From positions 13,684 to 77,683 of the forward strand of contig JACPSE010000006.1 in NCBI GenBank assembly GCA_016193465.1: a DNA stretch of 64,000 nucleotides. Reading direction: 5' to 3'. This stretch comes from Deltaproteobacteria bacterium. Its GTDB lineage: Bacteria > Desulfobacterota > Binatia > UBA9968. The first letter of the stretch is position 1; the number at the start of each line of letters is the position of its first letter. The notes below the pieces were generated by a model. That model ran no database searches and had not been told where the DNA came from. It was given only the letters and a program-made list of their open reading frames with translations. A program made the translations under genes and the position numbers. Shown here in pieces: positions 3,203-29,804 of the stretch.

Positions 3203-3249
3203 AAGTTCGCCCCTTTTCTGATCTAGCTAAGAGAGGGGACAGTGACTCT

Positions 3250-3350: not shown

Positions 3351-3429
3351 TCAAGCAACAACTAGCAGATGGGGAGGGGCAAGTCAAACCGCATCGTGAT
3401 CGTGCTCGCCCACGAACACGAACAACGGC

Positions 3430-13318: not shown

Positions 13319-13771
13319 GTGCTGGTAAACAAGAGACCCTTTTTCACGCGCTATTCCACAAGCCTCTGGATTCGCTTTCTGCGTTTCAATCTCCTTTCCA
13401 ACAAGAAATTGCAGGATGATCTGGAAAAGCTCGATCTTACCCCTCCCCAGTTCTATGTCTTGGCGACCATCGGGTACGCCGGCGAGCTCCCGTTCAGCGA
13501 GATCGGCGAGAAGATGATGGTGACCGTAAGCAACCTGACCGGCATCGTTGATCGGCTAGAGGAAAAAGGATTGGTCACCCGGGAAAGAGACCTGCGTGAT
13601 CGGCGCATAGTCCGCGTCCGGCTAACGGAAAAAGGCTCCAAGCTCTACAAGAACACCATCCCGCTTTTCGAAAAGAGCATTGCGCAATTTTTCGCCCCTC
13701 TCGATAAATCACAACAAAAGGAGCTTTCCTCCCTTTTGCGCAAATTGATCCGCGTATCCTGGGCACACTAA
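13319..13771 (+). CDS. MarR family transcriptional regulator
   Basis: LTPPQFYVL...SNLTGIVDRLEEKGLV.R...DRR...VRLTEKG. Confidence 0.95.
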   Translation: MLVNKRPFFTRYSTSLWIRFLRFNLLSNKKLQDDLEKLDLTPPQFYVLATIGYAGELPFSEIGEKMMVTVSNLTGIVDRLEEKGLVTRERDLRDRRIVRVRLTEKGSKLYKNTIPLFEKSIAQFFAPLDKSQQKELSSLLRKLIRVSWAH

Positions 13772-13780
13772 AAACAGTCT

Positions 13781-13805
13781 TGAGTTGTGAGTTTTGAGTT
13801 CTGAG
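13781..13805. repeat. 7-bp-period tandem repeat (TGAGTT units)
   Basis: TGAGTTGTGAGTTTTGAGTTCTGAG, the reverse complement of the right arm at 4322-4356. Confidence 0.7.
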
Positions 13806-13813
13806 GAGGGGCG

Positions 13814-13842
13814 TTGACAGAGATATTTAACAGATATAAAGT
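13814..13842 (+). promoter_or_regulatory. Putative sigma70 promoter for the 13865-19868 operon
   Basis: TTGACA (13814-13819), 17 bp spacer, TAAAGT (13837-13842), in an AT-rich interval. Confidence 0.55.
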
Positions 13843-13864
13843 TTCAATATTAACGATTTAACCT

Positions 13865-15094
13865 ATGGAAGAAAAAACGAAAAGCCACAGAGCCGCGGGG
13901 CTTGAGCGGGTAAAGAAGTGGCTTTATGCGAAGAGTCTGGAAGAGCGCGGCGCCGGATGCGTTCTCTGTGGCTCCTGCTACGGTCACGGTCCGGCCAACC
14001 CGATGGAGGACCATCCAGGCTTTAAGACCAAATGTCCGCCTTATGAGTTTTACCGCTTCCAGCGTTTCACCCCCAAATCACGCTGGCTCATGGCGCAACG
14101 TGTCTTTCATGGTCTCGACCCCATCACTCCTGAACTAAAAGAGGTTATTTACACTTGCACGACCTGCCTCATGTGCCAGGAGATCTGCGGCGTGCGCAAC
14201 GACGGCTACGGTCCATGGGACATAGCCGTGGCCATGCGCGAGGAAATCACGGCGCAGCAGGGGCCGATCGACGCCCACCGGCCGCTCCTCGAGGGGCTGC
14301 AACACCACAACAACCCATGGGCCCTGCCCAAGAGCAGGCGAGGGCAGTGGGCCAAGGGGCTGGGACTAAAAAAACTCGGCGCTGACAAAAGCCCTACTCT
14401 CCTCTTTGCCGGCTGCTCTGCCGATCTGCCAAGCGGCAGAGCAGGCGCCACAGCCCTCGCCAGGCTCATGAAACAGGCGCGGGAAGACTTCGTCATCTTA
14501 GGAGAAGAAGAGAGCTGCTGCGGCCTCTATGCGAGCGATCTCGGCTTTCGCGGCGAATACTATCGCCTGCAGCAGGAGAATCTTAAAGTGGCAAGACAGG
14601 CCGGGATCAAAAAGATCGTGGTTGCCTGCGGGAGCTGCCGGCGGATCTGGCAGGACTACCCCAAGGAGGAGATGGAAGGGATCGAAGTGCTGCATGGTGT
14701 CGAGTACGTGGATAGGCTCTTGCGCGCAGACCGGCTGAAATTTAACAAGCCCGTGCGGAGAAAAATCACCTACCACGACCCTTGCCATCTCGGAAGGGGC
14801 TCGGGCGTCTATGAAGCGCCGAGAAATATCCTGCGCTCTATTCCTGGAGTTGAGCTGGTGGAGATGGAGCGCAACCGCCGCTGGTCGTGGTGCTGCGGCG
14901 GTGGCGGCGGGGTTCCCGAAGCCTTCCCGGAACTATCTCAGTGGAGCGCTCAGGACCGGCTGAGCGAAGCGGGGCGCACTGGCGCGGACCTCCTCCTGAC
15001 CACGAGCGCGCTTTGTTTGCGCAGCTTCGCCCAACACGGGCAGTCCCGTGTGCCCCCCCAAGAGCTGCTGGAATTCATCTACCAGGCCATTTAA
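13865..15094 (+). CDS. Fe-S-binding oxidoreductase with two CCG domains (GlcF/HdrD-like)
   Basis: CVLCGSC and CTTCLMCQEIC ferredoxin motifs; ESCCG, YHDPCHLGR and WCCGGGGG CCG motifs. Confidence 0.9.
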   Translation: MEEKTKSHRAAGLERVKKWLYAKSLEERGAGCVLCGSCYGHGPANPMEDHPGFKTKCPPYEFYRFQRFTPKSRWLMAQRVFHGLDPITPELKEVIYTCTTCLMCQEICGVRNDGYGPWDIAVAMREEITAQQGPIDAHRPLLEGLQHHNNPWALPKSRRGQWAKGLGLKKLGADKSPTLLFAGCSADLPSGRAGATALARLMKQAREDFVILGEEESCCGLYASDLGFRGEYYRLQQENLKVARQAGIKKIVVACGSCRRIWQDYPKEEMEGIEVLHGVEYVDRLLRADRLKFNKPVRRKITYHDPCHLGRGSGVYEAPRNILRSIPGVELVEMERNRRWSWCCGGGGGVPEAFPELSQWSAQDRLSEAGRTGADLLLTTSALCLRSFAQHGQSRVPPQELLEFIYQAI

Positions 15095-15097
15095 GGA

Positions 15098-15835
15098 ATG
15101 CGAAAAGAGGCTCATTTCACTCCTGAAAAAATGCTTTCTCTCCTGGGAGTCAAGGCCGGATCGCTGGCCCCTTACGCTCTTATCCCCGGGCCCAAGGAGC
15201 GCAGCCAGATGCTCCTGGCGGCGCTAAAAAATACGCGCAAAAATTTTTCCTTCCTGGATTATGAGATGCACACGGGGACGCACGACGGGAGACAAGTAAC
15301 CGTGGGTAACGGGGGGCGGTATGCTCCCGATACCGCGATCACCACGGAGATCCTGTGCGCGGCCGGCGTCGAGTCGCTCATCCGCATCGGGAGCTGCGGC
15401 TCCTTGCAGGAGGATATCAGGATTGGCGACCTGGTCATTGTCACCGGAGCGCTGCGCGGGGAGGGGACGACGAGTTACTATGTGCCAAAAAATTTTTCTA
15501 CCCTCTCCCACCCGGAGATTGTTGGCGCCCTAACCGAGGCGGCAAAGAGTTTGAACGTCCGTTATCACCTCGGTTCGGTTTTTACCACCGACGCCCTGTT
15601 TCAGGAAACCCCGGAACTCATTCAGGAGCTGGAGCAGCAGAAGGTCTCCGGGATCGACATGGTCACGTCAACCTTTCTCACCGTCGCCCAGGTGCGCCAT
15701 AAAAAGGCCTGCGCGATCCTGGCTGTTTCGGACGAGTGTCTCAAGGGAAAGATGGGGTTCCGCGATCCCGTTTTTCTCGAGGCCGAAGAAAAAATGGTCG
15801 AGGTCGCGCTCAAGGCGATCCATCTCCTGGATTAA
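15098..15835 (+). CDS. Nucleoside phosphorylase (hexameric DeoD/Udp type)
   Basis: IPGPKER, LIRIGSCG, GDLVI, RGEGT, TTDALF and AILAVSD motifs. The canonical EME motif reads DMV. Confidence 0.88.
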   Translation: MRKEAHFTPEKMLSLLGVKAGSLAPYALIPGPKERSQMLLAALKNTRKNFSFLDYEMHTGTHDGRQVTVGNGGRYAPDTAITTEILCAAGVESLIRIGSCGSLQEDIRIGDLVIVTGALRGEGTTSYYVPKNFSTLSHPEIVGALTEAAKSLNVRYHLGSVFTTDALFQETPELIQELEQQKVSGIDMVTSTFLTVAQVRHKKACAILAVSDECLKGKMGFRDPVFLEAEEKMVEVALKAIHLLD

Positions 15836-15841
15836 AAAAAG

Positions 15842-17368
15842 ATGAAACCGAAACAGAGTCCGCTTTTTGTCCCGGCGCTCTGGGAAGAGGACCATTTCAA
15901 GATTGTCGATGAAACCCTGCTTCCCTGGAAGGTGGAATACATCACGGTCCGCGCGATCCCCGAGGCGCTGCGGGCAGTCAAGGAGATGAAGACGCGCGCC
16001 TTTGGCCAGGTTCTAACCTTTCTTTACGCTGCGGCCCTGGTGGCGCAAGGCTACAAAGCCAAAGATCTCGAACCGTTAAGATCGCGGCTCGCCCAACTGG
16101 CAGAGGAATTCACTGAGGCGCGCCCGACCTTTGATTTCCAAGGGCTCGCCGGATCTTACACCGAATGGTTTCGTGACTATCCGCCGGGGGAAGAGCCGGG
16201 AAGGTGGTTTTGCACAAAGGCCATTGCCTTCGCGGACACGATTGTGCAAGCGCGAAACAACAGAGCCAGACTGGCCGCCGGGATCCTTCCGGACCCCTGC
16301 CGGCTTCTTACCCATTGCAACATTAGCGGCGAGCTCGTTGCTGTGGCCGAGTGGTGTCGTCAAATGGGCAAGGAGATCCGGATCGTTGCCACGGAAACCC
16401 GTCCCTATCTCCAGGGCTCCCGTCTGACTGCCTGGGAGCTCTCCCGGGCCGGCTTTCGGGTTGCCTTGATTCCTGACTGCGCGATCGCGCAGGTCATGGC
16501 TAAGGGGGAAGTCAATGCCGTGCTGGTTGGCGCGGATCGCTGCGCTCAAAACGGCGATGTGATCAACAAGGTGGGAACCTATCCGTTGGCCTTGATGGCC
16601 AAGGAATACAACGTCCCTTTCCATGCCTTAGTCCAAGAGCCCGGTCTGCTTGCTAAGGGAGAGGACGTCCTGATCGAAGAGCGCCCGGTCTCGGAGCTCT
16701 TCGCCTTTCAAAGCCGCGCGCGCGCGCCCGAAGGCCTGAAAGGCCGCTATCCGGCTTTTGATCTCACGCCTTCCTCTCTGATCACAACGCTGATCGGCTT
16801 CGATAGCGCTCTCACGCCTGAGAGTTTCAGACAAAGATTTCACCAGGACACCCATGCCACCGCAAACAGCAAGAAAGAGGGAGAGCCTTACCTTCTCTTG
16901 TATGGAATTCCCAAGCGCGACAGCTACGCCCATCTCTCCCATGCGCTCAAAGCGGAGCAGGCGTCCGCGGTCCTGGTCCCAGAGATGCGCCCGGCGCTGT
17001 GGGGCGCGCGCGTGATTACTCGTGAGCTCCTTCAGAGGAAAATCCCGGCGACGCTCATCTCCGACAACATGATGGGCGCGTTTTTCGCGCAGGGACAAAT
17101 TAAACGCCTCTATCTCTTCTACTCGGAGCTTAGTGGAGAGAGGCTCGTGGGCATCTGCGGCTCACTGCTGGCGGTGCGTCTGGCGCGGACCCACGCGGTA
17201 CCCATCGAGCTGCTCTCGGCCGAAGAAAGTCAGGACGCTCCGCCCGATCGCGACGTCTCCACTTTCCTGGGCCAGCGGGTCATCTGCGATCGGGTCACCA
17301 TCTATCCCATTGAAAAGGAGGTCATCCCTTGGTCTCTATTAAAAGAGAGCAGGGCTGGCAGCGCATGA
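15842..17368 (+). CDS. mtnA: Methylthioribose-1-phosphate isomerase-like protein with a degenerate duplicated C-terminal domain
   Basis: IVDETLLP, LTHCN, ETRPYLQGSRLTAWEL, GADRCAQNGDVINKVGTY and FDLTP motifs, then a second EMRP..GAR....EL...IPATLISDNM copy. Confidence 0.85.
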   Translation: MKPKQSPLFVPALWEEDHFKIVDETLLPWKVEYITVRAIPEALRAVKEMKTRAFGQVLTFLYAAALVAQGYKAKDLEPLRSRLAQLAEEFTEARPTFDFQGLAGSYTEWFRDYPPGEEPGRWFCTKAIAFADTIVQARNNRARLAAGILPDPCRLLTHCNISGELVAVAEWCRQMGKEIRIVATETRPYLQGSRLTAWELSRAGFRVALIPDCAIAQVMAKGEVNAVLVGADRCAQNGDVINKVGTYPLALMAKEYNVPFHALVQEPGLLAKGEDVLIEERPVSELFAFQSRARAPEGLKGRYPAFDLTPSSLITTLIGFDSALTPESFRQRFHQDTHATANSKKEGEPYLLLYGIPKRDSYAHLSHALKAEQASAVLVPEMRPALWGARVITRELLQRKIPATLISDNMMGAFFAQGQIKRLYLFYSELSGERLVGICGSLLAVRLARTHAVPIELLSAEESQDAPPDRDVSTFLGQRVICDRVTIYPIEKEVIPWSLLKESRAGSA

Positions 17369-18363
17369 AAAAGCTGGAGCGCGAGATGATCTACTTTGGC
17401 AAGCTCCTTTTCGAGCGCCGCCTGATCAGCGGCTGGGGCGGAAACATAAGCTGTCGTCTTGGAAAAGACCGTTTCCTCATTACCGCGCAGCACGCCTCTT
17501 TAGGTTTTCTCAGCCCCGCCGAGCTGCTCCAGATTGACGGGAAAGGGAAACCGGCCAAGAAAAAGCGACAGCCATCGAGTGAAACTCCCCTCCACCTTGC
17601 AGTCTACAGCGGCACCGAGGCCCAGGCTGTGGTCCACGCCCACCCTCCCGGGGTGCTCGCTTTCTCTCTAGGCCACCAAAGCTTTGTTCCTCTGAGCTTT
17701 GAGGAAAAATACACTATCGGGGAGGTTCCCGTTCTGGCGCAGCAGACCCCCACGGTGACCGAAACTGCGAGAGTGGTGGAGCAGCTCAGGCTTTGCCCTA
17801 TCGTTATCCTCCAAGGCCACGGCACCGTTGCCTTGGGGAAAAACTTGCGAGAGGCCTTCCTTTTAACCGACCTCCTGGAAGAGGCTGTCCACTGCCAGTT
17901 TTTCAACAATGAGTCCAAACCCCAGGCCGATCCAAGGCCGACTTCCCTGCCGGGCCGCCATAGCGGCGATCCCGAACTGGGGGAAAAATACGCGCTTTTT
18001 TCTCAGGAGCACATGACGGCCCTTATCAAGAGCGCCAATGGCGATGCCGAATTTCAGAGCCAGGGCGAGGCAACCGGACTGACAACCACCCTCACTCTCT
18101 ACCTGGAAGATGCGGATACCCCCTGGACGGTCCACTTCGAAAAGGGCAAGATCACCCGCCTGGAAGCAGCGGCGGAGGGAGAGTTTATTATTAGCGGAAG
18201 GAGAGAATGGTGGGAGGCGATTTTTCAGAGACGCATGGATCCCTTCCTCGCAACCCAGCAAGGGAAGCTCAGGCTTAAGCGCGGCGAGCTTTGGCAGCTC
18301 TCCCAATGGTTCAAACCTTTTCAGAGAGCTTTCGCGTTATGGCAGACGATTCCCATCAAGTAG
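17365..18363 (+). CDS. Class II aldolase/adducin fused to a C-terminal SCP2 (sterol-carrier-like) domain
   Basis: GNIS, PSSETPLH, VVHAHP and LQGHG motifs; C-terminal IISG..EWWEAI...MDPFLA.QQGKL SCP2 pattern; ATGA overlap with mtnA. Confidence 0.88.
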   Translation: MKKLEREMIYFGKLLFERRLISGWGGNISCRLGKDRFLITAQHASLGFLSPAELLQIDGKGKPAKKKRQPSSETPLHLAVYSGTEAQAVVHAHPPGVLAFSLGHQSFVPLSFEEKYTIGEVPVLAQQTPTVTETARVVEQLRLCPIVILQGHGTVALGKNLREAFLLTDLLEEAVHCQFFNNESKPQADPRPTSLPGRHSGDPELGEKYALFSQEHMTALIKSANGDAEFQSQGEATGLTTTLTLYLEDADTPWTVHFEKGKITRLEAAAEGEFIISGRREWWEAIFQRRMDPFLATQQGKLRLKRGELWQLSQWFKPFQRAFALWQTIPIK

Positions 18364-19868
18364 GATTCTTCGCCGCTGACATCCTGGAGCGGAGCGCGCA
18401 AAAGTTTCCTGAGAAAGTCGCCCTTATCTCGCGGGAAGGAGAGCTCACTTTCAAAGAGGTGAGGGAGAGAGCCGCCAATCTCGCAGGCCACATGCAGAGC
18501 GAGGGGATCCGGCAGGGAGATCGAGTCGGCCTCCTCTTGCCGAATTCCAGCGCCTTTGCCCTCGGCTATTATGCAACCCAAAAAACGGGCGCCGTCACTG
18601 TCGTCCTGGATGCACGGCTTAAGGGGAGAGAGCTCGCCGGGGTCCTCCGTGATGCCGACCTCAGTCTCCTGATGACCCATAAGCGTCTCCTCGCCGATAA
18701 TGACGCGACGCTTGGAGAGTTCGGCCAGCTTGCCCGGTGGGTTGTTGACGGCGAGGGCGAACAGGACTTCGAAAAAAGGCTCTCTCATCCAGCGGAATGT
18801 TTTGTGCCGCCTGAGCCCCAGCCAACGAATGACGCCCTGATCCTCTACACCTCAGGAACAACAGGGGAACCGAAAGGCGTGGTCCTGAATCACATCAATC
18901 TGGCGCAGTTTCCTCGCTGCATGACGGAGGTGTGCAAGACGGGGGCCAATGAGGTCCTAGGCTGCATCCTTCCCATGTCGCATATCTCCGGTCCGATCCA
19001 GTGCAACGAGATTGTGGACAAGGGCGGCACCTTGGTTATATTCGATCAGATGAATCCGGTGACCTTGCTTGAGGGGATCCAGAGACACCGGATCACTGTG
19101 TTTCACGGCGTCCCTGTCATCTTCCAGCTTCTCCTGGGAGCGGCCAACCTGAAGGACTATGACACGACCAGCGTCAGCCTCGCGGCAATGATGGGGACAA
19201 CGGTGCCCTTGCCCTTGATGCGCGCCTTCAAAAAATCCCAGCCCCATATCAAAGTCATCCAGGGATATGGTCTCACGGAGAGCTCCCCTTTGATAACGCT
19301 GACCGATCCCAAAGACGCAGACGCAAAGATGGCGAGCATTGGAAAATCCGCTCCAGGGGTAGAGATAAAGATCGTTGATGAGAGAGGCCGCGAGGCGCCA
19401 GAAGGCGAAGCCGGTGAGATTATCACCCGCGGACCCCATGTGATGAAGGGCTATTTTCGCAGGCCAGAGGTAACCGCGGAGCGGATTCGCAACGGCTGGC
19501 TCTACACCGGGGATATTGGACGGTGCGACAGTGACGGCTACTATTACCACCTGGGGCGAAAAGATGACATGATCATCACCGGTGGGCTCAACGTTTATCC
19601 GGCCGAGGTGGAGAATATGCTCTCTGAGCACCCCCAGGTCCAGGAGGCGGTGGTCTTTCCGATCCCGGACTCCAAGAGAGGAAACATCATCGGCGCCGCC
19701 GTGGTCCTGCGTCCGGGAGAAAAAACAGCAGAAAGGGATCTGCTCACTTTTCTCCGCTCGAACCTGGCAAACTTCAAGGTCCCGCAGAAAATCAAGATCC
19801 GCGATTCCCTTCCCCACACCTCCTCTGGCAAAGCGGTTAGGGATGCCTCAGCCCTGCTCTCGGACTAG
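18339..19868 (+). CDS. AMP-forming acyl-CoA ligase (long-chain fatty acid CoA ligase-like)
   Basis: YTSGTTGEPKG, QGYGLTE, GEIITRGPHVMKGY, YTGD and GRKDDMII motifs. Confidence 0.93.
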   Translation: MADDSHQVGFFAADILERSAQKFPEKVALISREGELTFKEVRERAANLAGHMQSEGIRQGDRVGLLLPNSSAFALGYYATQKTGAVTVVLDARLKGRELAGVLRDADLSLLMTHKRLLADNDATLGEFGQLARWVVDGEGEQDFEKRLSHPAECFVPPEPQPTNDALILYTSGTTGEPKGVVLNHINLAQFPRCMTEVCKTGANEVLGCILPMSHISGPIQCNEIVDKGGTLVIFDQMNPVTLLEGIQRHRITVFHGVPVIFQLLLGAANLKDYDTTSVSLAAMMGTTVPLPLMRAFKKSQPHIKVIQGYGLTESSPLITLTDPKDADAKMASIGKSAPGVEIKIVDERGREAPEGEAGEIITRGPHVMKGYFRRPEVTAERIRNGWLYTGDIGRCDSDGYYYHLGRKDDMIITGGLNVYPAEVENMLSEHPQVQEAVVFPIPDSKRGNIIGAAVVLRPGEKTAERDLLTFLRSNLANFKVPQKIKIRDSLPHTSSGKAVRDASALLSD

Positions 19869-19962: not shown

Positions 19963-20030
19963 AATCGCTTTGCAGGCCTGACCCACGCGAATTCAAAAAT
20001 TGTATCAACCCCTGCAAGCCAGCTTACCTC
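19963..20030. repeat. Imperfect direct repeat, copy A (about 70 bp), downstream of the spermidine-synthase-like gene
   Basis: The core 19976-20015 matches 22230-22269 at 36/40 nt, with further similarity on both sides. Confidence 0.85.
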
Positions 20031-20116
20031 TGAGAGCCCAAGTTGGCTTTTAGACAGCATCGACTGGCCGTGGACCATCATTTTATATCCGGGAAGGCGC
20101 TGTTATGTGCCAAATG

Positions 20117-22213
20117 TCATGGTGTGAGTGTCATAGTGCGGGATCCGATCCCCAAGACGCGCGTGTCATTTTTCACCACCAGGTACGACAGCAGATAGAA
20201 AAGAAACGCCAGCAGAAAAAGATAATTGAAGCCGGTTACCAGCGACTGGTATTCAAGCACCCCGCCGACCACCCCTCCCAGGATATTGGAACCCAGTGAA
20301 TAGTCGGGACTCGAAACCTTCTTGAAGGAATCCGCAAAGATGATGCCGGCAAAGAAGAGGGGAGACGCAATGAGTGTGCCGGAGAGAATGACTTTGAGGA
20401 ATACATTCTCGAAGTGGAGCATTTTAAGCGGGATCAAGAAGTTAAGTGTAATGGCGGTACCCAGAAGGGCGTAATAATATTCGACTTTCACCTCCTTGGC
20501 TCTTGATACGTAGAGGTTGGCAAGCAGTATCATGACGAGAATAGAGAAGACAACAATTGAGTTAATTATCCAGGTGGAGCTAAAGAGCAACGCAAGCGAA
20601 GTAATGCTCTTGGTCTCAAGGAGCATGAAGGCGCAACCAAGGTAGAAAAAATGCATATCTATGCCGATTTTTGTCTTGAGATTGCACAGGAATACGACAA
20701 GCGTCGATACGAGGACCACTAGAAGAAGCGTGATCAAATATTCCTGAGGAATAAAGTTGTTTTGGAGATAAAAGAATGGCCAGTCATCGGTGGTCACGCG
20801 GGTATCCTTCCGTACTTCAATGACTGGTTGTTGGGGTAAGTATCTTTCCAACCCCTCACCAACCACCATGCTGTAGCCATAAAAACCGATTGTATCCCAA
20901 AAATAGGGGCTCATAGTAAAAGCCTCTCTCAGCATGAGATACATTCTTTCTGCGTTCCACCGATGATGATTTGACATCAGGAGTACCGCGATGCCATTTT
21001 TCTTCAGGTGTTTTTTTGCGTCGGCAAGAGATTCCACGGTATATACGTAGGAATCGAGCCTTGCGCTCGCCATGGTTGAGAGCACAGTCTGGGAATCGAG
21101 AAGGGCGTATACAATGAGATCGTATTGCTTCTTTGTGTTGCGCAGATAACTCCGCGCATCGTTGATATGCACCGTTACCCGTGGATCGGCGTAAGGTCTG
21201 TCAGGATGCTTTTCTCTTCCTATCCTTACAATGAGCGGTTCTATGTCAACCACATCAATACGTCTGGCTCCATTCCGCATTGCCGCAGCGGCGTCGTTTC
21301 CCGATCCGCCCCCAAGAATCAGCACATCTTCCCGCGGGCCAAATCGGTAGGGGATGTCATACTGCTTGCGCAGGTATTTAAGCGCAGGATACTTCTGTAC
21401 CACCTCGTCGGAGAGCGCGACCGGCGTCTGGTAATAGCTGCCGTTGACAAAGATATTGAAGCCCACGTTCTCAGGCATGCTTTTGTCGCCATCCCAGACA
21501 TCCAGGACATGAGTAGAGGGCTCCTGCTCCCAGGGATATTGTCCATACTTGAGTTCTTTGAGTGTGATTTTATGATAAGGGGACCAGAGGGCATTTTCCG
21601 TGGAGAAAAAAACGACCACCATGGCCAAGATGAGGATCGTTATATTTACCGCACGCCATACTCCTCGGGTTCTGTAAAGCCACAATAAGAAGGGAAGCGA
21701 CAGAGCGAGCCATAGGGTCGGCGGGCTGGAGAATAGGGAAAGGAGTGAGAAGGTGGCAATTCCCAGGATGCTCCCTGAAATATTGATAGAATAGGCGGAA
21801 AGCGAAGTCATTTCTCGCATGAGTGTGCCAATCTCTTGCCCGAAGGGAACGAATGAGAGGGTAATGAGCACGTAGAACAGGGGAATAACATAATAGAGAT
21901 TGATGATCCATTTCTGGCGATCGTAGTTAAGGAAGATCAAATCTGTTGTGGGACCGATGACCCTCACATCCTTAAAAAGTAAAACCACAAGGAGAAGCAC
22001 CAGGAAGAAAATGGGAAAGAAATTGAGCACGCGAATTTTATATCGCGCGAGCAGACATCCCGCCCCTAAGCCCAGGAAACTCGCAATAAGCACGAAATTG
22101 GTATAATACCCGATGATACGCACCTGGGACGGAATATAGCGTATCAGGAGCATTTCAAAGAAGAGCGAGAGAAAGCTTACAATAAATAGATCGAGCGCTA
22201 TTTTCCTGGTCAT
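20117..22213 (-). CDS. Multi-TM protein fused to a spermidine-synthase-like SAM-dependent domain
   Basis: N- and C-terminal TM blocks; WSPYHKI, VLILGGGSGND, DVVDIEP, NDARSYL, YDLI and TTDDWPFFY motifs. Visibly AT-richer than its flanks. Confidence 0.9.
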   Translation of the reverse strand: MTRKIALDLFIVSFLSLFFEMLLIRYIPSQVRIIGYYTNFVLIASFLGLGAGCLLARYKIRVLNFFPIFFLVLLLVVLLFKDVRVIGPTTDLIFLNYDRQKWIINLYYVIPLFYVLITLSFVPFGQEIGTLMREMTSLSAYSINISGSILGIATFSLLSLFSSPPTLWLALSLPFLLWLYRTRGVWRAVNITILILAMVVVFFSTENALWSPYHKITLKELKYGQYPWEQEPSTHVLDVWDGDKSMPENVGFNIFVNGSYYQTPVALSDEVVQKYPALKYLRKQYDIPYRFGPREDVLILGGGSGNDAAAAMRNGARRIDVVDIEPLIVRIGREKHPDRPYADPRVTVHINDARSYLRNTKKQYDLIVYALLDSQTVLSTMASARLDSYVYTVESLADAKKHLKKNGIAVLLMSNHHRWNAERMYLMLREAFTMSPYFWDTIGFYGYSMVVGEGLERYLPQQPVIEVRKDTRVTTDDWPFFYLQNNFIPQEYLITLLLVVLVSTLVVFLCNLKTKIGIDMHFFYLGCAFMLLETKSITSLALLFSSTWIINSIVVFSILVMILLANLYVSRAKEVKVEYYYALLGTAITLNFLIPLKMLHFENVFLKVILSGTLIASPLFFAGIIFADSFKKVSSPDYSLGSNILGGVVGGVLEYQSLVTGFNYLFLLAFLFYLLSYLVVKNDTRVLGIGSRTMTLTP

Positions 22214-22218
22214 AAAAA

Positions 22219-22284
22219 ATCGCTTTTGAGCCGGACCCGCGCGAACTCAAAAATTGTATCAGCCCCTGCGCCCCGGCTTATCTT
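22219..22284. repeat. Imperfect direct repeat, copy B; contains an extended -10 (TG-A-TACAAT) on the minus strand just upstream of the ATG at 22213
   Basis: Minus strand ...GGCTGATACAATTTTTGAGTTCGCGCGGGTCCGGCTCAAAAGCGATTTTTTATG. Confidence 0.8.
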
Positions 22285-22703
22285 GCCGGCGAAGTTTCTC
22301 ATAGGCCCTCCAGCCGCTACCTACACAAAACCCTGCATATGGATGGGGCAATTTCCGACCCGGTCGCTTTCTGAGCGTTTTGTAGAAGATCTTCGGGAAT
22401 CTAACTGCGATTTTTTTAGCTGGCTCCATGGAAAAAATATGCCGCTGAGAACACCATAACTCAATGCGGTGGTTTCTCACTCTTGCCCACCTCAGTCAAA
22501 CGGGAAAAAGCAGGGAAAAAATCGAAGGTTTTCAGGGATCTGAATAGTGATCTTCTTCGCTGTCTGTATAGCAAACATTTACCGGTGACAAGACCATAAG
22601 TCAATAGGGTGCGCCTCGGCCCGGCTTCCGGTCAGTGTTGGACATTTCCTCGCCCTTGGGGTAATAAAGATTTAAACGACTTGAGAGAAAAAAGGATTCA
22701 ACA

Positions 22704-23765
22704 GTGATTTCCAATCCACCAGAAATGCCAACCGGCAAATTGCGCATGGCCCCTGCATGCTATCATGTGCTCCATTTGGTGCCGGTCATGGTTGCCCATG
22801 AGATGAACTTCTTCTACGACGAGGGTCTCAAAGACGCGGAGGGAAATCTCGCCTACGAAATTGCCCCTGGGGGTTTGGTACCCTTTGGCTTCGAGAAGGC
22901 CGGACTGGTCAAAGCCATGGAGGAGAAAGGGATCGATATCGCCCTGGACATTCTGACTCCTACGGTCTTCTTTCAGCGCTCCCGAGGCGCCGACCTTTAC
23001 ATCATAGCAGGGTGGAGAAACCAATCGGCCCATGTCTGGGTGGGAGGCCCGGAAGTAAAGTCGCTTCGAGATCTAAAGGGACGACGCATCGGTGTCATAG
23101 AAATAGGCGGGGTTACCTATCGGGGAATCAAGACCTGGGTGCGGAAGGCCGGGCTTGATCCCGACCGAGACGTGGAATGGATCGCGCCTGTTTATCCGCC
23201 TTCGAACATCGACGCTCTAAGAAAGGGCGCCATTCATGCGGTCTTTGTCCACAGTTGGCAGGCAGAGGAGCTGAAGCGGGAAGGATTTAATATTCTGATC
23301 AGTCTAAAAGAGCAGTATCCCAATGGCCGTCCCGACCGGATCATCGCCGCTAGCGGGAAGACTATTGAGAGCAGGCCCGATCTGGTGAAGGGCTTTCTCA
23401 AGGGGATGATCCGGGCCTACTGGTATATGCGGGATCAACCTAAAAACTTCGAGTACGTCTACAATTTGGAAAGGAGACTGCGCCGTCAAAGCCCCAACGC
23501 GGATGAGAGGAGAAGCAAACAGATCGGCGGATCGCCCCGTCAGATGGAGGCGATGCCCTTTCCCATTGACGGGCTTCCCACCGGGTTCGAAGAGCTCTTG
23601 GAGGAGGAGAAGGAAGCGGGAGAGCTTGACTTTAATGTGCCGGACGTCAAGGATGTGTGTGATCTGAATTTGGTAAAGGAGGCCTTTAAGGAACTCAAGG
23701 AGCGGGAGGAGCTAAAGGCCGAGTTCGAGCGGGTGAGCGCTGTGGTGAGGAGACTTGGCTATTGA
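22704..23765 (+). CDS. NMT1/SsuA/THI5-like periplasmic-binding-fold protein lacking a signal peptide
   Basis: IIAGW...WVGGPEVKSLRDLKGRRIGV...GLDPDRDV...ALRKGAIHAV...PDLVKGFLKG pattern; no hydrophobic N-terminus. Confidence 0.8.
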   Translation: MISNPPEMPTGKLRMAPACYHVLHLVPVMVAHEMNFFYDEGLKDAEGNLAYEIAPGGLVPFGFEKAGLVKAMEEKGIDIALDILTPTVFFQRSRGADLYIIAGWRNQSAHVWVGGPEVKSLRDLKGRRIGVIEIGGVTYRGIKTWVRKAGLDPDRDVEWIAPVYPPSNIDALRKGAIHAVFVHSWQAEELKREGFNILISLKEQYPNGRPDRIIAASGKTIESRPDLVKGFLKGMIRAYWYMRDQPKNFEYVYNLERRLRRQSPNADERRSKQIGGSPRQMEAMPFPIDGLPTGFEELLEEEKEAGELDFNVPDVKDVCDLNLVKEAFKELKEREELKAEFERVSAVVRRLGY

Positions 23766-23826
23766 AATCATTTTGCAGTGAGCGGCCTGGCTCCCCCAAC
23801 GCCATGAAATCAAAGGAGGTAGCGGA

Positions 23827-24780
23827 ATGGAACGGCGGTTTTTAGATTTTTTGGAGATTGCTCCCAGAAGCAGCAAGCCCCGGAGCCGGGGTCTCACCGG
23901 CGTCAACGATCAGGGTTATCCGACCCCATGGCTGCGAGAGATGCTCGCCGCCTACAGCGATCACATCGACGGGGTTAAATTCACTCCTACCACTTTGCCA
24001 ATGCCTTGGGATGTCATCGAGGGACGAGTCAAGGCGTACCGTGATTACAAAGTGGACGTGAAGATCGACGACCCCATTTTTGCCATCGCTTATTACCAAG
24101 GCAAGGCGGATCAGTTGCTGCGCACGCTGGCGCAAATAGGCTTCACCCATGTGCAGATTGACACCGAACATGTCGCCGCGGGCAAAAAGGGCGGGCCGGC
24201 GCGCGCCGGCGAGGACGAGTCGCGCTATATGTCGCTGGCACGGGAATTAGGTCTGCGAGTGGAGGGCGAGGTCGGAAAAAAGTGGAAAGAGGGGGACCTG
24301 GCGAGGGCTGAGGGTGGATTGCTCAACGTCGAAGCGATTGTCTCGGAAACCCGCCGTTTGCTTTCTGCCGGATGTGAAAAGGTCTACTTCGAGAGCCGGG
24401 TGCTTCGGGAGGCGATAGGAGATTACGGCGAGAAGGAGCGGGGCGGCCAGCAGGTGCGCCAGGTCGTAGAGGGTGTCGGGCTGGACAACATCGTCTTTGA
24501 AGTCACCTGGCAAATGCCCTGGGATACCCGCCAGTGCCATCGCTTCTGGCTGGTGAGGAACTTCGGGCCCGACGTCAACATCGCCGGCGCCGGCACGATC
24601 GATGAGGTCCGGTTTATCGAGGCGATCCGTCGCGGCCTGACCTTTGTCAGCGGCCCGAGCAAAGCCTCGAGCAAGCTATGGATCAAGTCGCTAGCCAAGG
24701 GCGGAGGAAAGGCAGCCGAGGATTGGTGGAAGGAGGACTACCCGATTGATCCGAGTTTCGCGCAGCCGCTTCGCTCATGA
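23827..24780 (+). CDS. Phosphosulfolactate synthase (ComA) family protein
   Basis: KPRSRGLT.V.D.G, IDGVKF, EVGKK, L.AG...V..ESR, IVFE and FGPDVNIA pattern of the ComA TIM barrel. Confidence 0.82.
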   Translation: MERRFLDFLEIAPRSSKPRSRGLTGVNDQGYPTPWLREMLAAYSDHIDGVKFTPTTLPMPWDVIEGRVKAYRDYKVDVKIDDPIFAIAYYQGKADQLLRTLAQIGFTHVQIDTEHVAAGKKGGPARAGEDESRYMSLARELGLRVEGEVGKKWKEGDLARAEGGLLNVEAIVSETRRLLSAGCEKVYFESRVLREAIGDYGEKERGGQQVRQVVEGVGLDNIVFEVTWQMPWDTRQCHRFWLVRNFGPDVNIAGAGTIDEVRFIEAIRRGLTFVSGPSKASSKLWIKSLAKGGGKAAEDWWKEDYPIDPSFAQPLRS

Positions 24781-24836
24781 AAGGAAAAGATTTCGCCAAG
24801 ATGACAGAACGCTAAGAAAGCGAGAGGGGGTAATCT

Positions 24837-25862
24837 ATGAAATACCGAGTTTTTTTTGTGATCGTTGGAGCGCTCCTGTTGATCTCGTTACCTCGGGAAA
24901 GCCGGGGACAGGGTTGGGAGCAAACCCTCCAGAGGCTCTACCCGGCAGCCAAGGAGGAGGGCGAAGTTATCTTCAATACGGCGCGCGTCGAGGAAGTCGG
25001 GGGCAAAGAGGGGATTGAGAAGTTTTATAAGAGGTTCCCTGGAATCAAGATTACGTTTACCGCGGTTTCCGCGAGCACGCTCCCCTCGAGGCTCATCACC
25101 GAGGCGAGAACCGGGCGCGTCACTATTGACGCGTTGAGGGGCGGGCCGGAAAACGCCAAACCTCTCGTCGATAGAGACCTGCTGATAACTGTCAATCCTA
25201 AGGAGTTGACGGGTCATCCGGTACGCACGGAGTTCAACAACCGATACATCGACATCAGCCATCATCTCAGCCACTTCGGTTACAACACGAAGCTTGTCTC
25301 TAAGGAGGAGATGCCCAAGCGCTACGAGGACTTGCTGGACAGTAAATGGAAGGGAAAGATCACCCTGGACGCGCGCGGGGGTCAGATTGTCCATCTCCAA
25401 TCTCTGTGGGGAGAGGAGAAGTTCTGGCAATTTGTTAAGGCCTTGGCGGCGCAAAAACCGATATGGGCCCGCCGGGTCACCGACGCTATGTCCAAGCTGG
25501 TTAGCGGGGAAGCCTATATCGGCAACGCCTCCTATGTGGCAGTCCAGCAATTCAAAAGCAAAGGCGCCCCCATTGAATTTCTCTTTCTCAATCCAGTGCG
25601 GGTACAGACAAGAGGAGTCAGTATTTTGAAAGCTTCTCCCCATCCCAATGCTGCCAAGCTTTTCTTGGCGTGGCTGCTCTCGCCGGAAGGTGTGGAGGCG
25701 ACAGACAAGCATGGAGTCGGGCCGGCAGTCCCGGGAACGTCTCTTTACGAGGCCCTGCAGAAGGCCGGGACAAAGCTCTCTTTTGATGAGGGCTTTGATG
25801 AATTGATGGCCCGCGACAAGATCTCAGACAAGATCACCGATCTTTGGGGCGCCTTGAAATAA
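24837..25862 (+). CDS. ABC transporter extracellular solute-binding protein
   Basis: Signal peptide; AAKEEGEV, RLITEARTG, YNTKLV...PKRYEDLLD.KWKGKI and PHPNAAKLF motifs. Confidence 0.93.
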   Translation: MKYRVFFVIVGALLLISLPRESRGQGWEQTLQRLYPAAKEEGEVIFNTARVEEVGGKEGIEKFYKRFPGIKITFTAVSASTLPSRLITEARTGRVTIDALRGGPENAKPLVDRDLLITVNPKELTGHPVRTEFNNRYIDISHHLSHFGYNTKLVSKEEMPKRYEDLLDSKWKGKITLDARGGQIVHLQSLWGEEKFWQFVKALAAQKPIWARRVTDAMSKLVSGEAYIGNASYVAVQQFKSKGAPIEFLFLNPVRVQTRGVSILKASPHPNAAKLFLAWLLSPEGVEATDKHGVGPAVPGTSLYEALQKAGTKLSFDEGFDELMARDKISDKITDLWGALK

Positions 25863-25910
25863 CCAAGAGCTTGCTAAGCGGCGTTTGCCCCTCGTTCGTA
25901 TCGTGATAGG

Positions 25911-27683
25911 GTGCAGATGGCCTTTTTCAACGGTCTGGTGATGTCTGAATCAGCGGCTCAAAGAAGATGGCGCCCTTCGCTTCCCCTCGACAAGCTGATC
26001 TTCGTCCTTCCCGCCGCCGCAGTGACCTACCTGGTAGTGCCGCCTCTGGCGCTCCTCCTGATATCGACTTTCAGGAGCACAGCCGATAGACTGCCCTTCG
26101 AGCCAGGACCGTGGATATTGTCCAATTACGCAACGGTCTTTACCAGCAGTGAAACCTATTTTCTGTTTCAAAATAGCCTGCTCTATGCCCTCTGCACGGT
26201 GCTTTCCGCCTTAACCATTGCCGTCGTATTGGTGTGGTTAATCGAGCGGACGGACCTGCCGGGACGGAACCTGCTTTTTACTCTCGTCTTGATACCTCTG
26301 GCCATACCTGGTCTGATCAAGGCGATTGGCTGGTCTCTCCTTGCAAGCCCTAGAATTGGCGCCGTTAACGTAGCGCTGAGAAATCTTTTGGGCACCAGCG
26401 GCGATTTGGGCCCGCTGAATATTTACTCTCTCCCGGGCATTATCTTTGTGAGCACGCTTTCCAACGTCCCGCCCATGGCGCTCATGATCTCCGGCTCCTT
26501 TCGCAGTTTCGATCCAGCCCTTGAGGAGGCCAGTGAGGCCTCTGGCGCCTCCCGGTCCCAGACTCAGCGCCTGGTTACCCTGCCTCTGCTGCGACCGGCC
26601 CTGTATGCCGCCTTCATTTATTATTTGGCCGATCTCTTGGACGACTTTCAGATTCCTGCCGTGCTGGGGCTCAACGCTGGAGTCCGCGTCCTTAGCACAA
26701 AGATTTTTCTGGCGACCCGTCCGGTGAGCGGGCTGCCAGACTACGGACTGGCGAGCGGTTATGCCATGGTGCTTTTCTCCGTCGCTATGGTCCTCATCCT
26801 GCTCTATCGCCGGATGGAACGCACACACCACAGGTTTGCGGTCATTACGGGCAAAGGATACCGTCCGCGCCGCATCCACCTGGGCGCGGGGAAGCATGTC
26901 GCCCTGGCGGGGATAGGGCTATACCTTCTCCTGGCTGCGATCTTGCCGGTGCTTATTCTTCTCTGGACAAGCCTCCAACCTTTTTTTACGGTTCCTTCAG
27001 CGGAGGGAGTCGGGCGGCTGACGTTGGCAAATTACCGCGGCCTGTGGGGGATGAGCCAGTTCAAGCAGGCTGCGCTGAATACCGGCTTGGTTGCGCTGAT
27101 CGTTGCCAGCGCGACTATGCTCCTCAGCACGCTGACGGCCTGGATGGCGCAGCGCGGCCGATTTTGGGGAAGCTCCGTTCCTGACACTCTCACCTTTGTC
27201 AACACGGCAGTTCCTAGCGTGGTTTTTGGACTCGCCGTGATGTTTGTCTATCTGAGCTTTCCGGTCCTTCCCATCTACGGAACCGTATGGATTTTGGTTA
27301 TTGCCTTTACCACCCGTTACCTGACCTATTCCACCCGTCTGATGGGAGGAGCGGTGGTGCAGATTCACCAGGAGCTTGAGGAGGCTTCGCATACTAGCGG
27401 CGCCTCTTCGTGGACGACTTTTAGGCGGATTACTTTGCCTCTTCTTTTCCCCTCGTTCCTCAACGGGTGGCTGTGGGTCGCCGTGCACGCGCTGCGGGAG
27501 GCAACCATTGCCGTCATGCTGATGACCCCGGCCAATGTGGTCCTCGGCGCCCTGATCTGGGAGAGATTCCAGGAAGGCGGCGAGCACGGACCCGTCGCCG
27601 CCATGAGTATTCTAGTGATGGCAGCCTCTTTCTTGCTCACTTTCATCGGCCGAAAGACCCTTCTGCGAGAGCCAACTTATTAA
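25911..27683 (+). CDS. ABC transporter permease (FbpB-like, double TM domain)
   Basis: Two EAA loops (LEEASEASGA, LEEASHTSGA) and about 12 TM segments. Confidence 0.94.
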   Translation: MQMAFFNGLVMSESAAQRRWRPSLPLDKLIFVLPAAAVTYLVVPPLALLLISTFRSTADRLPFEPGPWILSNYATVFTSSETYFLFQNSLLYALCTVLSALTIAVVLVWLIERTDLPGRNLLFTLVLIPLAIPGLIKAIGWSLLASPRIGAVNVALRNLLGTSGDLGPLNIYSLPGIIFVSTLSNVPPMALMISGSFRSFDPALEEASEASGASRSQTQRLVTLPLLRPALYAAFIYYLADLLDDFQIPAVLGLNAGVRVLSTKIFLATRPVSGLPDYGLASGYAMVLFSVAMVLILLYRRMERTHHRFAVITGKGYRPRRIHLGAGKHVALAGIGLYLLLAAILPVLILLWTSLQPFFTVPSAEGVGRLTLANYRGLWGMSQFKQAALNTGLVALIVASATMLLSTLTAWMAQRGRFWGSSVPDTLTFVNTAVPSVVFGLAVMFVYLSFPVLPIYGTVWILVIAFTTRYLTYSTRLMGGAVVQIHQELEEASHTSGASSWTTFRRITLPLLFPSFLNGWLWVAVHALREATIAVMLMTPANVVLGALIWERFQEGGEHGPVAAMSILVMAASFLLTFIGRKTLLREPTY

Positions 27684-27749
27684 GATCGCGGGGAACCGTC
27701 GAAAGGTGGAAGAGGCATTTCGTTGAAGCCGCCGAGATTTACAATCAGC

Positions 27750-28892
27750 TCAATGCGTAAGGATCTGAATCACGCAGGCATTAGTTTGGATATCAAAGAC
27801 CCCACCGCCAGAGTTGTGCTGCAGCGCAACCTTACACTGGTCGACCTGACGGCCTGCCGCCTCACCGCGCAACTGCCAGACAAGCTCAGCGAGCTGAGCG
27901 ATGCCTGTAGCTCCCAGCGGATGTCCCCGCGACAGCAATCCTCCACTGGTATTCACCGCTACCTTTTCTCCATTGATATCGAAATGGCCGGCCTGGGTAT
28001 ATCGACCCCCCTCCCCCTTCGGGCAAAGGCCCAAGCTCTCGCAGTAGAGCACCTGAGCCACACTAAAAGCGTCATGAAGCTCGCACACGTCGATATCTTC
28101 AGGCCCGATCCCGGCGGCTTCATAGGCCTCGTGCGCGATTCGCGCTGCGGTATCCTCCAAAGCGCAGATCCTGTCCCGCAGCTTGCCCGATCCCATGGCC
28201 GAGGCAACGATGCTTACCGGACGAGCCGTATACTGACGAGCCGCTTTCTCGCTGCCCAGGATAGCAGCCGCCGCGCCGTCTGCGTTAACCGTGCATTGGT
28301 ATTTGGTGATAGGGTCAGCGATCATGCGCGAAGCCAGCACTTCATTCAAGCTTAATTCCTGATGAAAATAGGCATAAGGATTGTGACAAGCATTAGACCT
28401 GCTCTTAACCGTCACCAGGGCGAACTGCTCCGGCGTAGTTCCGTACTCTTCCATGTGCCGACGCGCGGCAAGCGCATAAGCCGCCGGCATGACCAAGCCC
28501 ATAGCGGCAGCGAGGTCGTCAAGATCAAGAGGGATCATTCCACTGGAAAGCGAGCGGCTCAGGCTTTCAACCCCCAACGCCAGCGCTACGTCACACAGCT
28601 CCGCCTTGATCCAAGCATAAGCCTCGCGCATTGCGGTTCCCCCGCTGGCGCAGGAATTCTCAACATTAATGACAGGGATGCCTGTAAGTCCCAGATCCTT
28701 CAGAATCCTCTGCCCTATACCAAAAGGAAGGTAAACCGACCCGACAAACGCCGCCTGAATTTTTCGCCGATCGATCCCGGCATCCCGAATTGCGGCCCGT
28801 ATCGCTTCGTGGCCGAGATCCTCGGGTGTTCGCTCCGGCATCTTGCCGAAGCGCGTCATGCCTACGCCTAAGACAGCAACACCGTGACTCAT
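27750..28892 (-). CDS. Thiolase family protein (SCP-x type)
   Basis: VGMTRFGK, NVENSCASG, ELHDAF and GHPLGATG motifs; lacks the C-terminal CxG. Confidence 0.93.
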   Translation of the reverse strand: MSHGVAVLGVGMTRFGKMPERTPEDLGHEAIRAAIRDAGIDRRKIQAAFVGSVYLPFGIGQRILKDLGLTGIPVINVENSCASGGTAMREAYAWIKAELCDVALALGVESLSRSLSSGMIPLDLDDLAAAMGLVMPAAYALAARRHMEEYGTTPEQFALVTVKSRSNACHNPYAYFHQELSLNEVLASRMIADPITKYQCTVNADGAAAAILGSEKAARQYTARPVSIVASAMGSGKLRDRICALEDTAARIAHEAYEAAGIGPEDIDVCELHDAFSVAQVLYCESLGLCPKGEGGRYTQAGHFDINGEKVAVNTSGGLLSRGHPLGATGIAQLAELVWQLRGEAAGRQVDQCKVALQHNSGGGVFDIQTNACVIQILTH

Positions 28893-28905
28893 CGCCTTTC
28901 TCCCA

Positions 28906-29732: not shown

Positions 29733-29763
29733 GGTGTGCTCGAAACTCTCTTGTGCCTACGAG

Positions 29764-29798: not shown

Positions 29799-29804
29799 TT
29801 CCTC

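Follow-up and report, generated by a model that had tools for sequence, protein, structure and literature searches.

What does a bacterium do with an operon in which a nucleoside phosphorylase, an aldose-ketose isomerase and an acyl-CoA ligase are grouped with an aldolase fused to an SCP2 domain? The question is raised by a six-gene locus at positions 13319–19868 of a 64,000-nucleotide stretch, hereafter the window, from the Deltaproteobacteria bacterium assembly GCA_016193465.1 (Binatia). An earlier note on this DNA had proposed a new route of nucleoside catabolism, built on the core of the dihydroxyacetone phosphate (DHAP) shunt. That proposal holds in part: the operon is conserved, and in the full-text literature on the DHAP shunt, on Binatota and on combinations of SCP2, class II aldolase and MtnA we found no aldolase-SCP2 fusion or operon described, but what it encodes is apparently an undescribed variant of a known pathway type. 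The answer that we prefer, and to which we give about an even chance, is a conserved DHAP-shunt variant acting on a hydrophobic 5′-substituted nucleoside.

From gene content, conservation, catalytic residues and the associations with aldehyde dehydrogenase (ALDH) and ligase genes, all of which are observed, we infer the chemical steps, the direction of flux and a hydrophobic substituent X. The purine-type phosphorylase would remove the base from a 5′-substituted 5′-deoxynucleoside to give a 5-substituted ribose-1-phosphate, the MtnA-like isomerase with its extra IF-2B-like domain would convert this to the ribulose-1-phosphate form, and the zinc-dependent class II aldolase would cleave the latter to DHAP and an aldehyde X-CH2-CHO. 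Oxidation to X-CH2-COOH would be carried out by the downstream ALDH in other phyla and by an enzyme encoded outside the operon in Binatia, after which the ligase would make the CoA thioester of the acid. The MarR-family regulator would repress the operon at a conserved operator until its ligand appears, and the Fe-S/CCG protein would serve as a lineage-specific redox accessory.

Conservation was assessed on loci from a scan of one genome per species (80 loci) and from a metagenome scan (80 more), onto which the window proteins were mapped; adjacency was counted only where the locus had a full-length fusion of the Binatia type and sufficiently long flanks. The aldolase-SCP2 protein has its closest relatives in metagenome-assembled genomes of Candidatus Binatia, many of them labelled ‘Deltaproteobacteria’. 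Within Binatia the fusion gene is adjoined by the isomerase gene at 102 of 102 loci, by the phosphorylase gene at 93 of 93 and by the ligase gene at 90 of 90, while the Fe-S/CCG gene and the MarR gene occur at 68 and 67, respectively, of the 72 assessable loci. With more than 100 independent contigs showing it, the arrangement is far beyond chance, and the survey of aldolase-SCP2 neighbourhoods that had been suggested as a check on the gene set upheld it. The fusion family is also rare and coherent, because an exhaustive hidden Markov model search of 1.84 billion representatives recovered only about 27 clusters of full-length fusions (clustered at 50% identity), below which plain aldolases of about 190 residues are ranked.

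The aldolase domain (17365–17913, plus strand; PF00596, Aldolase_II, 129 bits) keeps the three zinc-binding His residues, the catalytic Glu and the GNxS phosphate site (GxGGNxS), all invariant in an alignment of 58 family sequences. Its AlphaFold (AF2) model (predicted local distance difference test score 82) matches Thermus thermophilus FucA (2fk5) with a template modelling (TM) score of 0.85 normalised to the target, and also superposes on Escherichia coli fuculose-1-phosphate aldolase and Bacillus thuringiensis DrdA (TM 0.78–0.81 to the target). The SCP2 domain (17980–18363, plus strand), which follows a disordered linker of about 20 residues, scores 25.2 bits against PF02036 (cut-off 21.3), and its profile finds T. 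thermophilus SCP2 (2cx7/1wfr, E 2.7e-7) as well as mammalian SCP2. Foldseek with the full-length AF2 model returned class II aldolase-fold proteins only, and the SCP2 half was confirmed by the sequence profile; its predicted alpha/beta secondary structure agrees with the SCP2 fold, and in the 58-sequence alignment it is as conserved as the aldolase domain. The SCP2 domain is thus real by sequence and fold, and family knowledge together with the neighbouring genes suggests that it may bind a lipid or other hydrophobic ligand. Among the next-nearest relatives of the aldolase domain (P0430, P0437 and others), many are about 425 residues long with two tandem class II aldolase domains, and one protein of 694 residues (P0415) matches profile positions 51–310, a range that takes in most of the SCP2 domain and a portion of the aldolase domain.

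Could the aldolase-family protein instead be an MtnB-type dehydratase, or another non-aldolase, in a route resembling methionine salvage? MtnB shares the fold, which hosts many chemistries, and its model TIGR03328 does match, but at 61.7 bits against a cut-off of 137; no homologues of MtnC, MtnD, MtnW or MtnX were seen in the clusters examined, and the ALDH gene that directly follows the fusion in most non-Binatia clusters speaks for an aldehyde as the product, so that we give this possibility hardly any weight.

The phosphorylase (15098–15835, plus strand; PNP_UDP_1, 118 bits) groups with the hexameric enzymes DeoD, UP and Sulfolobus solfataricus MTAP (1jds). It scores far below the cut-offs of the models for MtnP (TIGR01694, 17.5 bits against 275), MtnN (23 against 74), HpnG (26.7 against 187) and futalosine hydrolase (22 against 125). 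It keeps His6, Arg35, Arg96/Ser99 and the purine-type Ser-Asp212, and the family has Leu at the position of Arg43, a phosphate ligand in E. coli PNP. An invariant Asp-Met-Val (‘DMV’) replaces the ribose-binding Glu-Met-Glu (‘EME’) of PNP, UP and MTAP. These residues and scores point to a distinct subfamily of the hexameric type.

The isomerase gene encodes 508 residues (15842–17368, plus strand; IF-2B, 196 bits), of which the MtnA-like aldose-ketose isomerase domain occupies 15842–16861. This protein passes the TIGR00524 model (202 bits, cut-off 186) and falls just short of two equivalog models (PRK05720, 255 against 271; another, 224 against 279), whereas the ribose-1,5-bisphosphate isomerase model gives only 130 bits against 314. 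Cys159 (in THCN) and Asp232 (in GADR), the catalytic pair of the MtnA-type isomerase on which the DHAP shunt depends, are invariant in the family. Relative to Thermotoga maritima MtnA, seven residues after THCN are deleted in every cluster member. The C-terminal 170 residues (16862–17368) are 24–26% identical to small proteins of about 150 residues encoded at loci L075, L083 and L089 (E 1e-8 to 3e-11), which themselves match Pfam IF-2B weakly. On sequence grounds, the extra part of the Binatia isomerase is a second, truncated IF-2B-like domain, and its homology to the stand-alone proteins indicates that the Binatia enzyme is a fusion of partners that are separate elsewhere; fused or separate, the partner always accompanies the isomerase in the aldolase-SCP2 family. 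The modification of all three core enzymes that had been noticed earlier thus applies to the whole family, through the isomerase deletion and extra domain, the SCP2 fusion and the residue changes of the phosphorylase. The DHAP-shunt core itself appears to be preserved in the catalytic residues of the isomerase and aldolase and in the purine-type Ser-Asp of the phosphorylase, though not as an MtnP or MtnN, nor with a full set of phosphate-binding Arg residues, one being missing.

Independent evidence on the fate of the product comes from beyond Binatia. Two Fibrobacterales genomes encode an aldolase-SCP2 protein 38% identical to that of the window, and a search seeded with it found further clades, including Latescibacterota; the non-Binatia proteins form at least five groups at 55% identity. 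Their core consists of the phosphorylase, an MtnA-like isomerase of about 330 residues and the small IF-2B-like protein of about 150 residues, followed by aldolase-SCP2, and in about 18 of the 22 assessable non-Binatia loci an NAD(P)-type ALDH gene comes directly after the fusion. Ligase genes are also present: a related one upstream, with ALDH downstream, at L133; two related ones upstream, again with ALDH downstream, in the Fibrobacterales loci (L075/L078); and one in place of ALDH at L087 and L172, which have different flanks and in which aldolase-SCP2 is followed by the ligase and then by an LpxL-like acyltransferase. Between the ligases of L087 and the window the identity is 39% (E 1e-101).

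Genes for the handling of hydrophobic compounds recur in the same neighbourhoods: upstream an MMPL/RND pump of the HAE3 type, and downstream the outer-membrane or periplasmic proteins DUF1329 and DUF1302, in the same orientation and with gaps of about 150–350 nucleotides to the enzyme genes, together with an LCAT-like (lipase-like) protein and Amidohydrolase_2 proteins. DUF1302 and DUF1329 proteins with an HAE3 pump are components of the AmeABCD monoterpene-efflux system of Castellaniella (PMC6394551), and the corresponding genes of Pseudomonas putida show fitness phenotypes on fatty esters (bioRxiv 10.1101/2020.07.04.188060). The comparison therefore supports, independently of Binatia, both the aldehyde-acid-CoA logic and the hydrophobic link that the earlier note had drawn from the SCP2 and ligase domains: the pump, the DUF1329/DUF1302 proteins, the LCAT-like lipase and the LpxL-like acyltransferase all stand beside the fusion in other phyla. 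Taken with the obligatory SCP2 fusion, these hydrophobe-transport and lipid-acyl genes suggest that X is hydrophobic. At L089 and L098 the core is preceded by a tungsten-type aldehyde:ferredoxin oxidoreductase, an Amidohydro_2 protein and a CrtI/HemY-like flavin oxidase, and at L089 additionally by ketosynthase, acyl carrier protein, cyclase and SRPBCC genes, which hints at polyketide or aromatic lipid chemistry there.

Several of these clusters (Fibrobacterales, L081/L171, L087/L172 and L088) also contain, between the isomerase gene and the small IF-2B-like gene, a gene for a BchE/HpnJ-like B12-binding radical S-adenosylmethionine (rSAM) protein, which raises the possibility that the module is biosynthetic. 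Like HpnH and MqnE, the rSAM enzyme would join a 5′-deoxyadenosyl group to a lipid or olefin, the adduct would be trimmed to an aldehyde or acid extended by two carbons, and the ligase would activate the acid for transfer onto a membrane lipid or for export. The order aldolase-SCP2, ligase, LpxL-like acyltransferase, kept in L087 and L172 despite their differing flanks, fits such a module, as do the efflux-type HAE3 pump and outer-membrane proteins that flank the L088 operon and the Sfp-type 4′-phosphopantetheinyl transferase gene found shortly past the ligase in 28 Binatia genome loci. However, the rSAM proteins score below every family cut-off (78–129 bits against 578–650 for HpnJ/HpnR) and resemble neither HpnH nor MqnE, the MMPL protein, at 37.5 bits against 752, is no HpnN, and the Binatia operon has no rSAM gene inside it or up to 10 kb away. 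Control by MarR, moreover, suits catabolism or detoxification better, and together with the ligase it fits degradation. We consider the biosynthetic alternative unlikely.

A related idea, which we regard as quite doubtful, is that the module trims rSAM-made 5′-C-adenosylated lipids of the adenosylhopane class through base removal, isomerisation and aldol cleavage, leaving the lipid exactly two carbons longer as an aldehyde, acid or acyl-CoA. If true, this would be a new bacterial way to make or degrade unusual lipid acids, and for adenosylhopane the product would be C32 hopanoic acid, which is abundant as a geolipid and whose biological origin is unclear. Adenosylhopane itself as the substrate is not supported by the HpnG, HpnN and HpnJ/HpnR scores given above or by the rSAM protein, which is not HpnH-like; hopanoids are not mentioned in the Binatota genome paper.

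The Fe-S/CCG protein (13865–15094, plus strand), a stand-alone HdrD/TfrB-like protein with a 4Fe-4S dicluster domain (Fer4_8) and two CCG domains, had been suggested both as a pathway component and as a GlcF-like enzyme in a route to glycolate. The model that it matches best is TfrB (142 bits, cut-off 385), and its PDB matches are an uncharacterised ‘iron-sulfur-binding reductase’ and HdrB, nothing else. All 120 matches listed among its relatives are Binatia orthologues of at least 70% identity; the gene is absent from all non-Binatia clusters examined and, within Binatia, from four of the 72 assessable loci (L002, L003, L129 and L131), a distribution that places the protein outside the conserved core, as a Binatia-specific and probably redox accessory.

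The glycolate idea belongs to a reading of the locus as general nucleoside catabolism, in which ribose-1-phosphate would be converted to ribulose-1-phosphate and then to DHAP and glycolaldehyde, with glycolaldehyde and glycolate handled by ALDH and the GlcF-like protein. It can draw on the existence of a haloarchaeal class II ribulose-1-phosphate aldolase, whose model (NF053831) the window aldolase matches, on the His of the phosphorylase that contacts the 5′-OH in PNP and UP, and on the ALDH that follows the aldolase in other phyla. The aldolase, however, reaches only 53 bits against the NF053831 cut-off of 300, and the Fe-S/CCG protein only 34.4 against the 333 of GlcF (NF008434). Because the latter is no GlcF orthologue and because no GlcD, GlcE or other FAD-oxidase partner was found in the operon or its conserved Binatia flanks, the glycolate route is weak. 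The patchy distribution of the Fe-S/CCG gene and an isomerase of the MtnA rather than the ribose-1,5-bisphosphate isomerase kind point the same way, and there would be no explanation for SCP2, the ligase or the transporters of hydrophobic compounds; we hold general nucleoside catabolism to be very improbable.

How the locus is controlled bears on the direction of the pathway. A check of open reading frames and domains across the locus, with model scores quoted against each family's cut-off, bore out the six plus-strand genes and their named domains. Five structural genes are tightly coupled: 3 nucleotides separate the Fe-S/CCG and phosphorylase genes and 6 the phosphorylase and isomerase genes, the isomerase stop overlaps the aldolase ATG in an ATGA at 17365, and the ligase ATG at 18339 lies 25 nucleotides ahead of the aldolase stop. 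These ATG codons are the likely starts of the aldolase and ligase, in preference to the TTG codons of the longest open reading frames (17329 and 18291) that had been adopted before. The MarR gene (13319–13771, plus strand; PF01047, 69 bits), by contrast, is separated by a 93-nucleotide spacer and is probably a transcription unit of its own, so that the tightly coupled operon behind MarR seen earlier comprises the five structural genes.

In the spacer, a sigma-70-like promoter for these genes (TTGACA-17-TAAAGT, 13814–13842, plus strand) is followed, at or just past the -10 element, by the imperfect palindrome GTTTCAATATTAAC (13841–13854). An alignment of 56 Binatia loci shows TTGACA, a TATAAA-like -10 element and, just downstream, the columns of a palindrome with the consensus GTTAA-N4-5-TTAAC to be conserved, and other positions not. 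The palindrome is thus a predicted MarR operator on the operon's own promoter. With a winged-helix PF01047 domain and a palindrome at the target promoter, the features of a MarR-type regulator appear to be present, and the protein is probably a repressor of the downstream operon. A riboswitch search of the window and of seven non-Binatia loci found none near the aldolase-SCP2 operons; elsewhere in the window there are a thiamine pyrophosphate riboswitch (3239–3356, minus strand, 78 bits) and a tRNA gene (1115–1187, minus strand).

The ligase (18339–19868, plus strand; AMP-binding, 288 bits) is an AMP-forming acyl-CoA ligase of the medium/long-chain or aromatic-acid type, which scores 428 bits against PRK06187 (cut-off 476) and has feruloyl-CoA synthetase and FadD5 as its best PDB relatives. 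The earlier proposal that the aldehyde is oxidised and then CoA-activated gains from the ALDH and ligase genes beside the fusion in other phyla, and the ALDH directly downstream in most of those clusters is itself an argument for an aldehyde product. The oxidising enzyme, however, is missing from the Binatia operon, which leaves this step as a gap there.

One gene of the window could supply the step: an ALDH (31079–32545, minus strand), 48–50% identical to the post-aldolase ALDHs of L088 and L089 and 42–45% identical to those of L075 and L085, with no counterpart within 10 kb in the other Binatia loci. It is part of a minus-strand run (27750–32545) that also contains a PaaA/PaaC-like protein, a MaoC/FAS1-type hydratase, a DUF35/ChsH2-like OB-fold protein and an SCPx/Ltp-type thiolase, a gene set typical of the cleavage of bulky or branched acyl-CoA side chains. 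A three-subunit Mo-hydroxylase (2Fe-2S, molybdenum cofactor and FAD subunits; PaoABC/CoxSLM-like) is encoded at 33651–37490 and occurs downstream in at least 17 Binatia loci; it was not assigned as the missing aldehyde oxidase because homologues of its small subunit carry a Tat-type signal and because its distance to the operon varies.

The gap in oxidation, with no aldehyde-oxidising enzyme in the Binatia operon and no ALDH within 10 kb in 78 Binatia genome loci, weighs against a DHAP-shunt variant with a hydrophobic substrate, and it is not alone in this. Adjacency inside Binatia is weak evidence, since the wider neighbourhood is syntenic too, with holA, a PLD-like gene, a D-Ala-D-Ala carboxypeptidase gene and a metallo-beta-lactamase gene. 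Dehydratases, decarboxylases, epimerases and dioxygenases share the class II aldolase fold, and SCP2-fold domains are sometimes not lipid binders. With one phosphate-binding Arg and the customary ribose-binding Glu missing, the phosphorylase could instead be a hydrolase or accept an unusual sugar. To our knowledge, all characterised triads of phosphorylase, isomerase and aldolase use small substrates, namely 5′-methylthioadenosine (MTA), 5′-deoxyadenosine (5′-dAdo) and 5′-fluoro-5′-deoxyadenosine. Finally, three Binatia loci (L074, L077 and L079) combine the phosphorylase with an aldolase that has no SCP2 domain.

The main rival is ordinary salvage of 5′-dAdo, MTA or both, which are universal by-products of S-adenosylmethionine; in this route DHAP and acetaldehyde or 2-(methylthio)acetaldehyde would be formed, the aldehyde oxidised and CoA-activated, and the SCP2 and IF-2B-like domains would be structural or regulatory. 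These by-products are the known substrates of such triads (PMC10986504, PMC12632272, PMC6079011). A near-universal operon among housekeeping neighbours (holA, D-Ala-D-Ala carboxypeptidase, Maf and Dus) is what this route would lead one to expect, the phosphorylase resembles hexameric S. solfataricus MTAP, and the Binatia loci with an SCP2-less aldolase fit it as well. So does the 5′-dAdo-producing B12-rSAM gene embedded in the cluster in several phyla, which at L083, compared with its sister locus L088, has been lost along with the phosphorylase gene. Salvage leaves unexplained, however, the strictly conserved SCP2 fusion, the RND and outer-membrane hydrophobe-transport genes with the LCAT-like and LpxL-like acyltransferase genes, a ligase of the medium/long-chain or aromatic type rather than an acetyl-CoA synthetase, and ligand-responsive control by MarR; nor is the phosphorylase an MtnP orthologue. 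We judge this rival possible though not probable, and retain the hydrophobic 5′-substituted nucleoside as our preferred substrate.

At the three SCP2-less loci, two of which are complete Binatia chromosomes, a phosphorylase with 64% identity to that of the window precedes a class II aldolase with 60% identity, and no isomerase or ligase gene is adjacent; at L079 the neighbours are AddAB-like helicase-nuclease genes and genes for TctC, Amidohydro_2, a short-chain dehydrogenase/reductase and glycine reductase B. The metallo-beta-lactamase gene, divergently oriented upstream of the operon in the majority of Binatia loci, was weighed as a possible component and set aside as synteny only, because Maf and Dus lie between it and the operon in the window. 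Past the ligase, many Binatia (L001, L005, L014 and about 35 others; 37 loci) have an open reading frame of about 100 residues that belongs to no recognisable family; both it and the phosphopantetheinyl transferase gene are absent from the window.

Compared with other Binatia, window positions 20000–32600 look like an insertion: elsewhere, genes for a KaiC/DnaB_C-like protein and the Mo-hydroxylase lie 1–5 kb past the ligase, while in the window the KaiC/DnaB_C-like gene is at 32612–33535, and G+C falls to 0.48–0.52 at 20–24 kb. The first gene of the insert (20117–22213, minus strand) encodes a 698-residue protein with a spermidine-synthase domain, an activity that would produce MTA; the insert further holds NMT1-like, ComA-like (phosphosulfolactate synthase) and ABC-transporter genes. 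Beyond it, a long plus-strand operon (37539–48182) encodes an acyl-CoA dehydrogenase, a family III CoA-transferase, an MmgE/PrpD protein, two ornithine-cyclodeaminase/mu-crystallin proteins, TctC-TctA-TctB and a solute-binding protein; its probable role is the catabolism of an organic acid or amino acid.

The DHAP shunt is, as far as we know, the most recently recognised disposal route for S-adenosylmethionine-derived nucleosides, and all versions known to us use small substrates. The aldolase-SCP2 family is near-universal in Binatia, an uncultured phylum of soils and sediments, and scattered through several anaerobe lineages. Its substrate could reveal a new class of hydrophobic 5′-modified nucleosides or adenosylated lipids, or else a re-use of SCP2 in sugar-phosphate chemistry, and the identity of that substrate would open a way to study function in a phylum of which no member is in culture.

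Among known systems, the fluoroacetate pathway of Streptomyces cattleya consists of fluorinase, the FlB phosphorylase, an isomerase, an aldolase and fluoroacetaldehyde dehydrogenase. The proposed route would follow it from a 5′-X-5′-deoxyadenosine through X-ribose-1-phosphate and X-ribulose-1-phosphate to DHAP and X-acetaldehyde and on to X-acetate, with an ALDH step as in the non-Binatia clusters. The phosphorylase there is of another type, whereas here the aldolase is fused to SCP2 and no SAM_HAT fluorinase or chlorinase is among the Pfam-annotated neighbours of the non-Binatia clusters examined. Precedents for the type of substrate proposed are HpnH/HpnG, of the hopanoid side chain, and MqnE/MqnB, of the futalosine route, in each of which a PNP_UDP_1-family enzyme removes the base from an rSAM-made, 5′-carbon-linked hydrophobic adenosine derivative. 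Those systems are not known to have an isomerase and aldolase to trim the product, and the phosphorylase, rSAM and MMPL proteins found here are not Hpn or Mqn orthologues. The haloarchaeal non-carboxylating pentose bisphosphate pathway also has a class II aldolase that cleaves nucleoside-derived ribulose-1-phosphate, but it runs via ribose-1,5-bisphosphate and ribulose-1,5-bisphosphate and yields glycolaldehyde, and its aldolase model is the one that the window protein falls far short of.

The closest parallels to the proposed chemistry are 5-deoxyribose salvage and the characterised DHAP shunt (PMC10986504, PMC6079011). In B. thuringiensis, DrdK, DrdI and DrdA use an MtnA-family isomerase and a class II aldolase to form DHAP and acetaldehyde (PMC6079011; PDB 6btd/6btg); DrdA resembles the window aldolase in the fold of its AF2 model at the TM values given above, with a sequence identity of only about 22%. 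That pathway starts with a kinase acting on the free sugar and lacks SCP2, an extra IF-2B-like domain, ALDH and ligase. The DHAP shunt of Rhodospirillum rubrum and extraintestinal E. coli employs MtnP, or MtnN with MtnK, followed by MtnA and Ald2 (PMC10986504, PMC12632272), and it shares with the present operon the three protein superfamilies and the clustering of the genes. The three-step logic would be common to both: a 1-phosphosugar is made from the nucleoside, then taken up by an MtnA-type isomerase, and DHAP and an aldehyde are released by a class II aldolase. It differs in using MtnP where the present operon has a divergent hexameric DeoD/UP-type phosphorylase, and in being controlled by MtnR or CRP rather than MarR. 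The isomerase of the aldolase-SCP2 family has the seven-residue deletion after THCN and the extra IF-2B-like domain, fused or separate, its aldolase is fused to SCP2 and followed by a dedicated ALDH, an acyl-CoA ligase or both, and in other phyla its genes are linked to those for hydrophobe transport and lipid metabolism.

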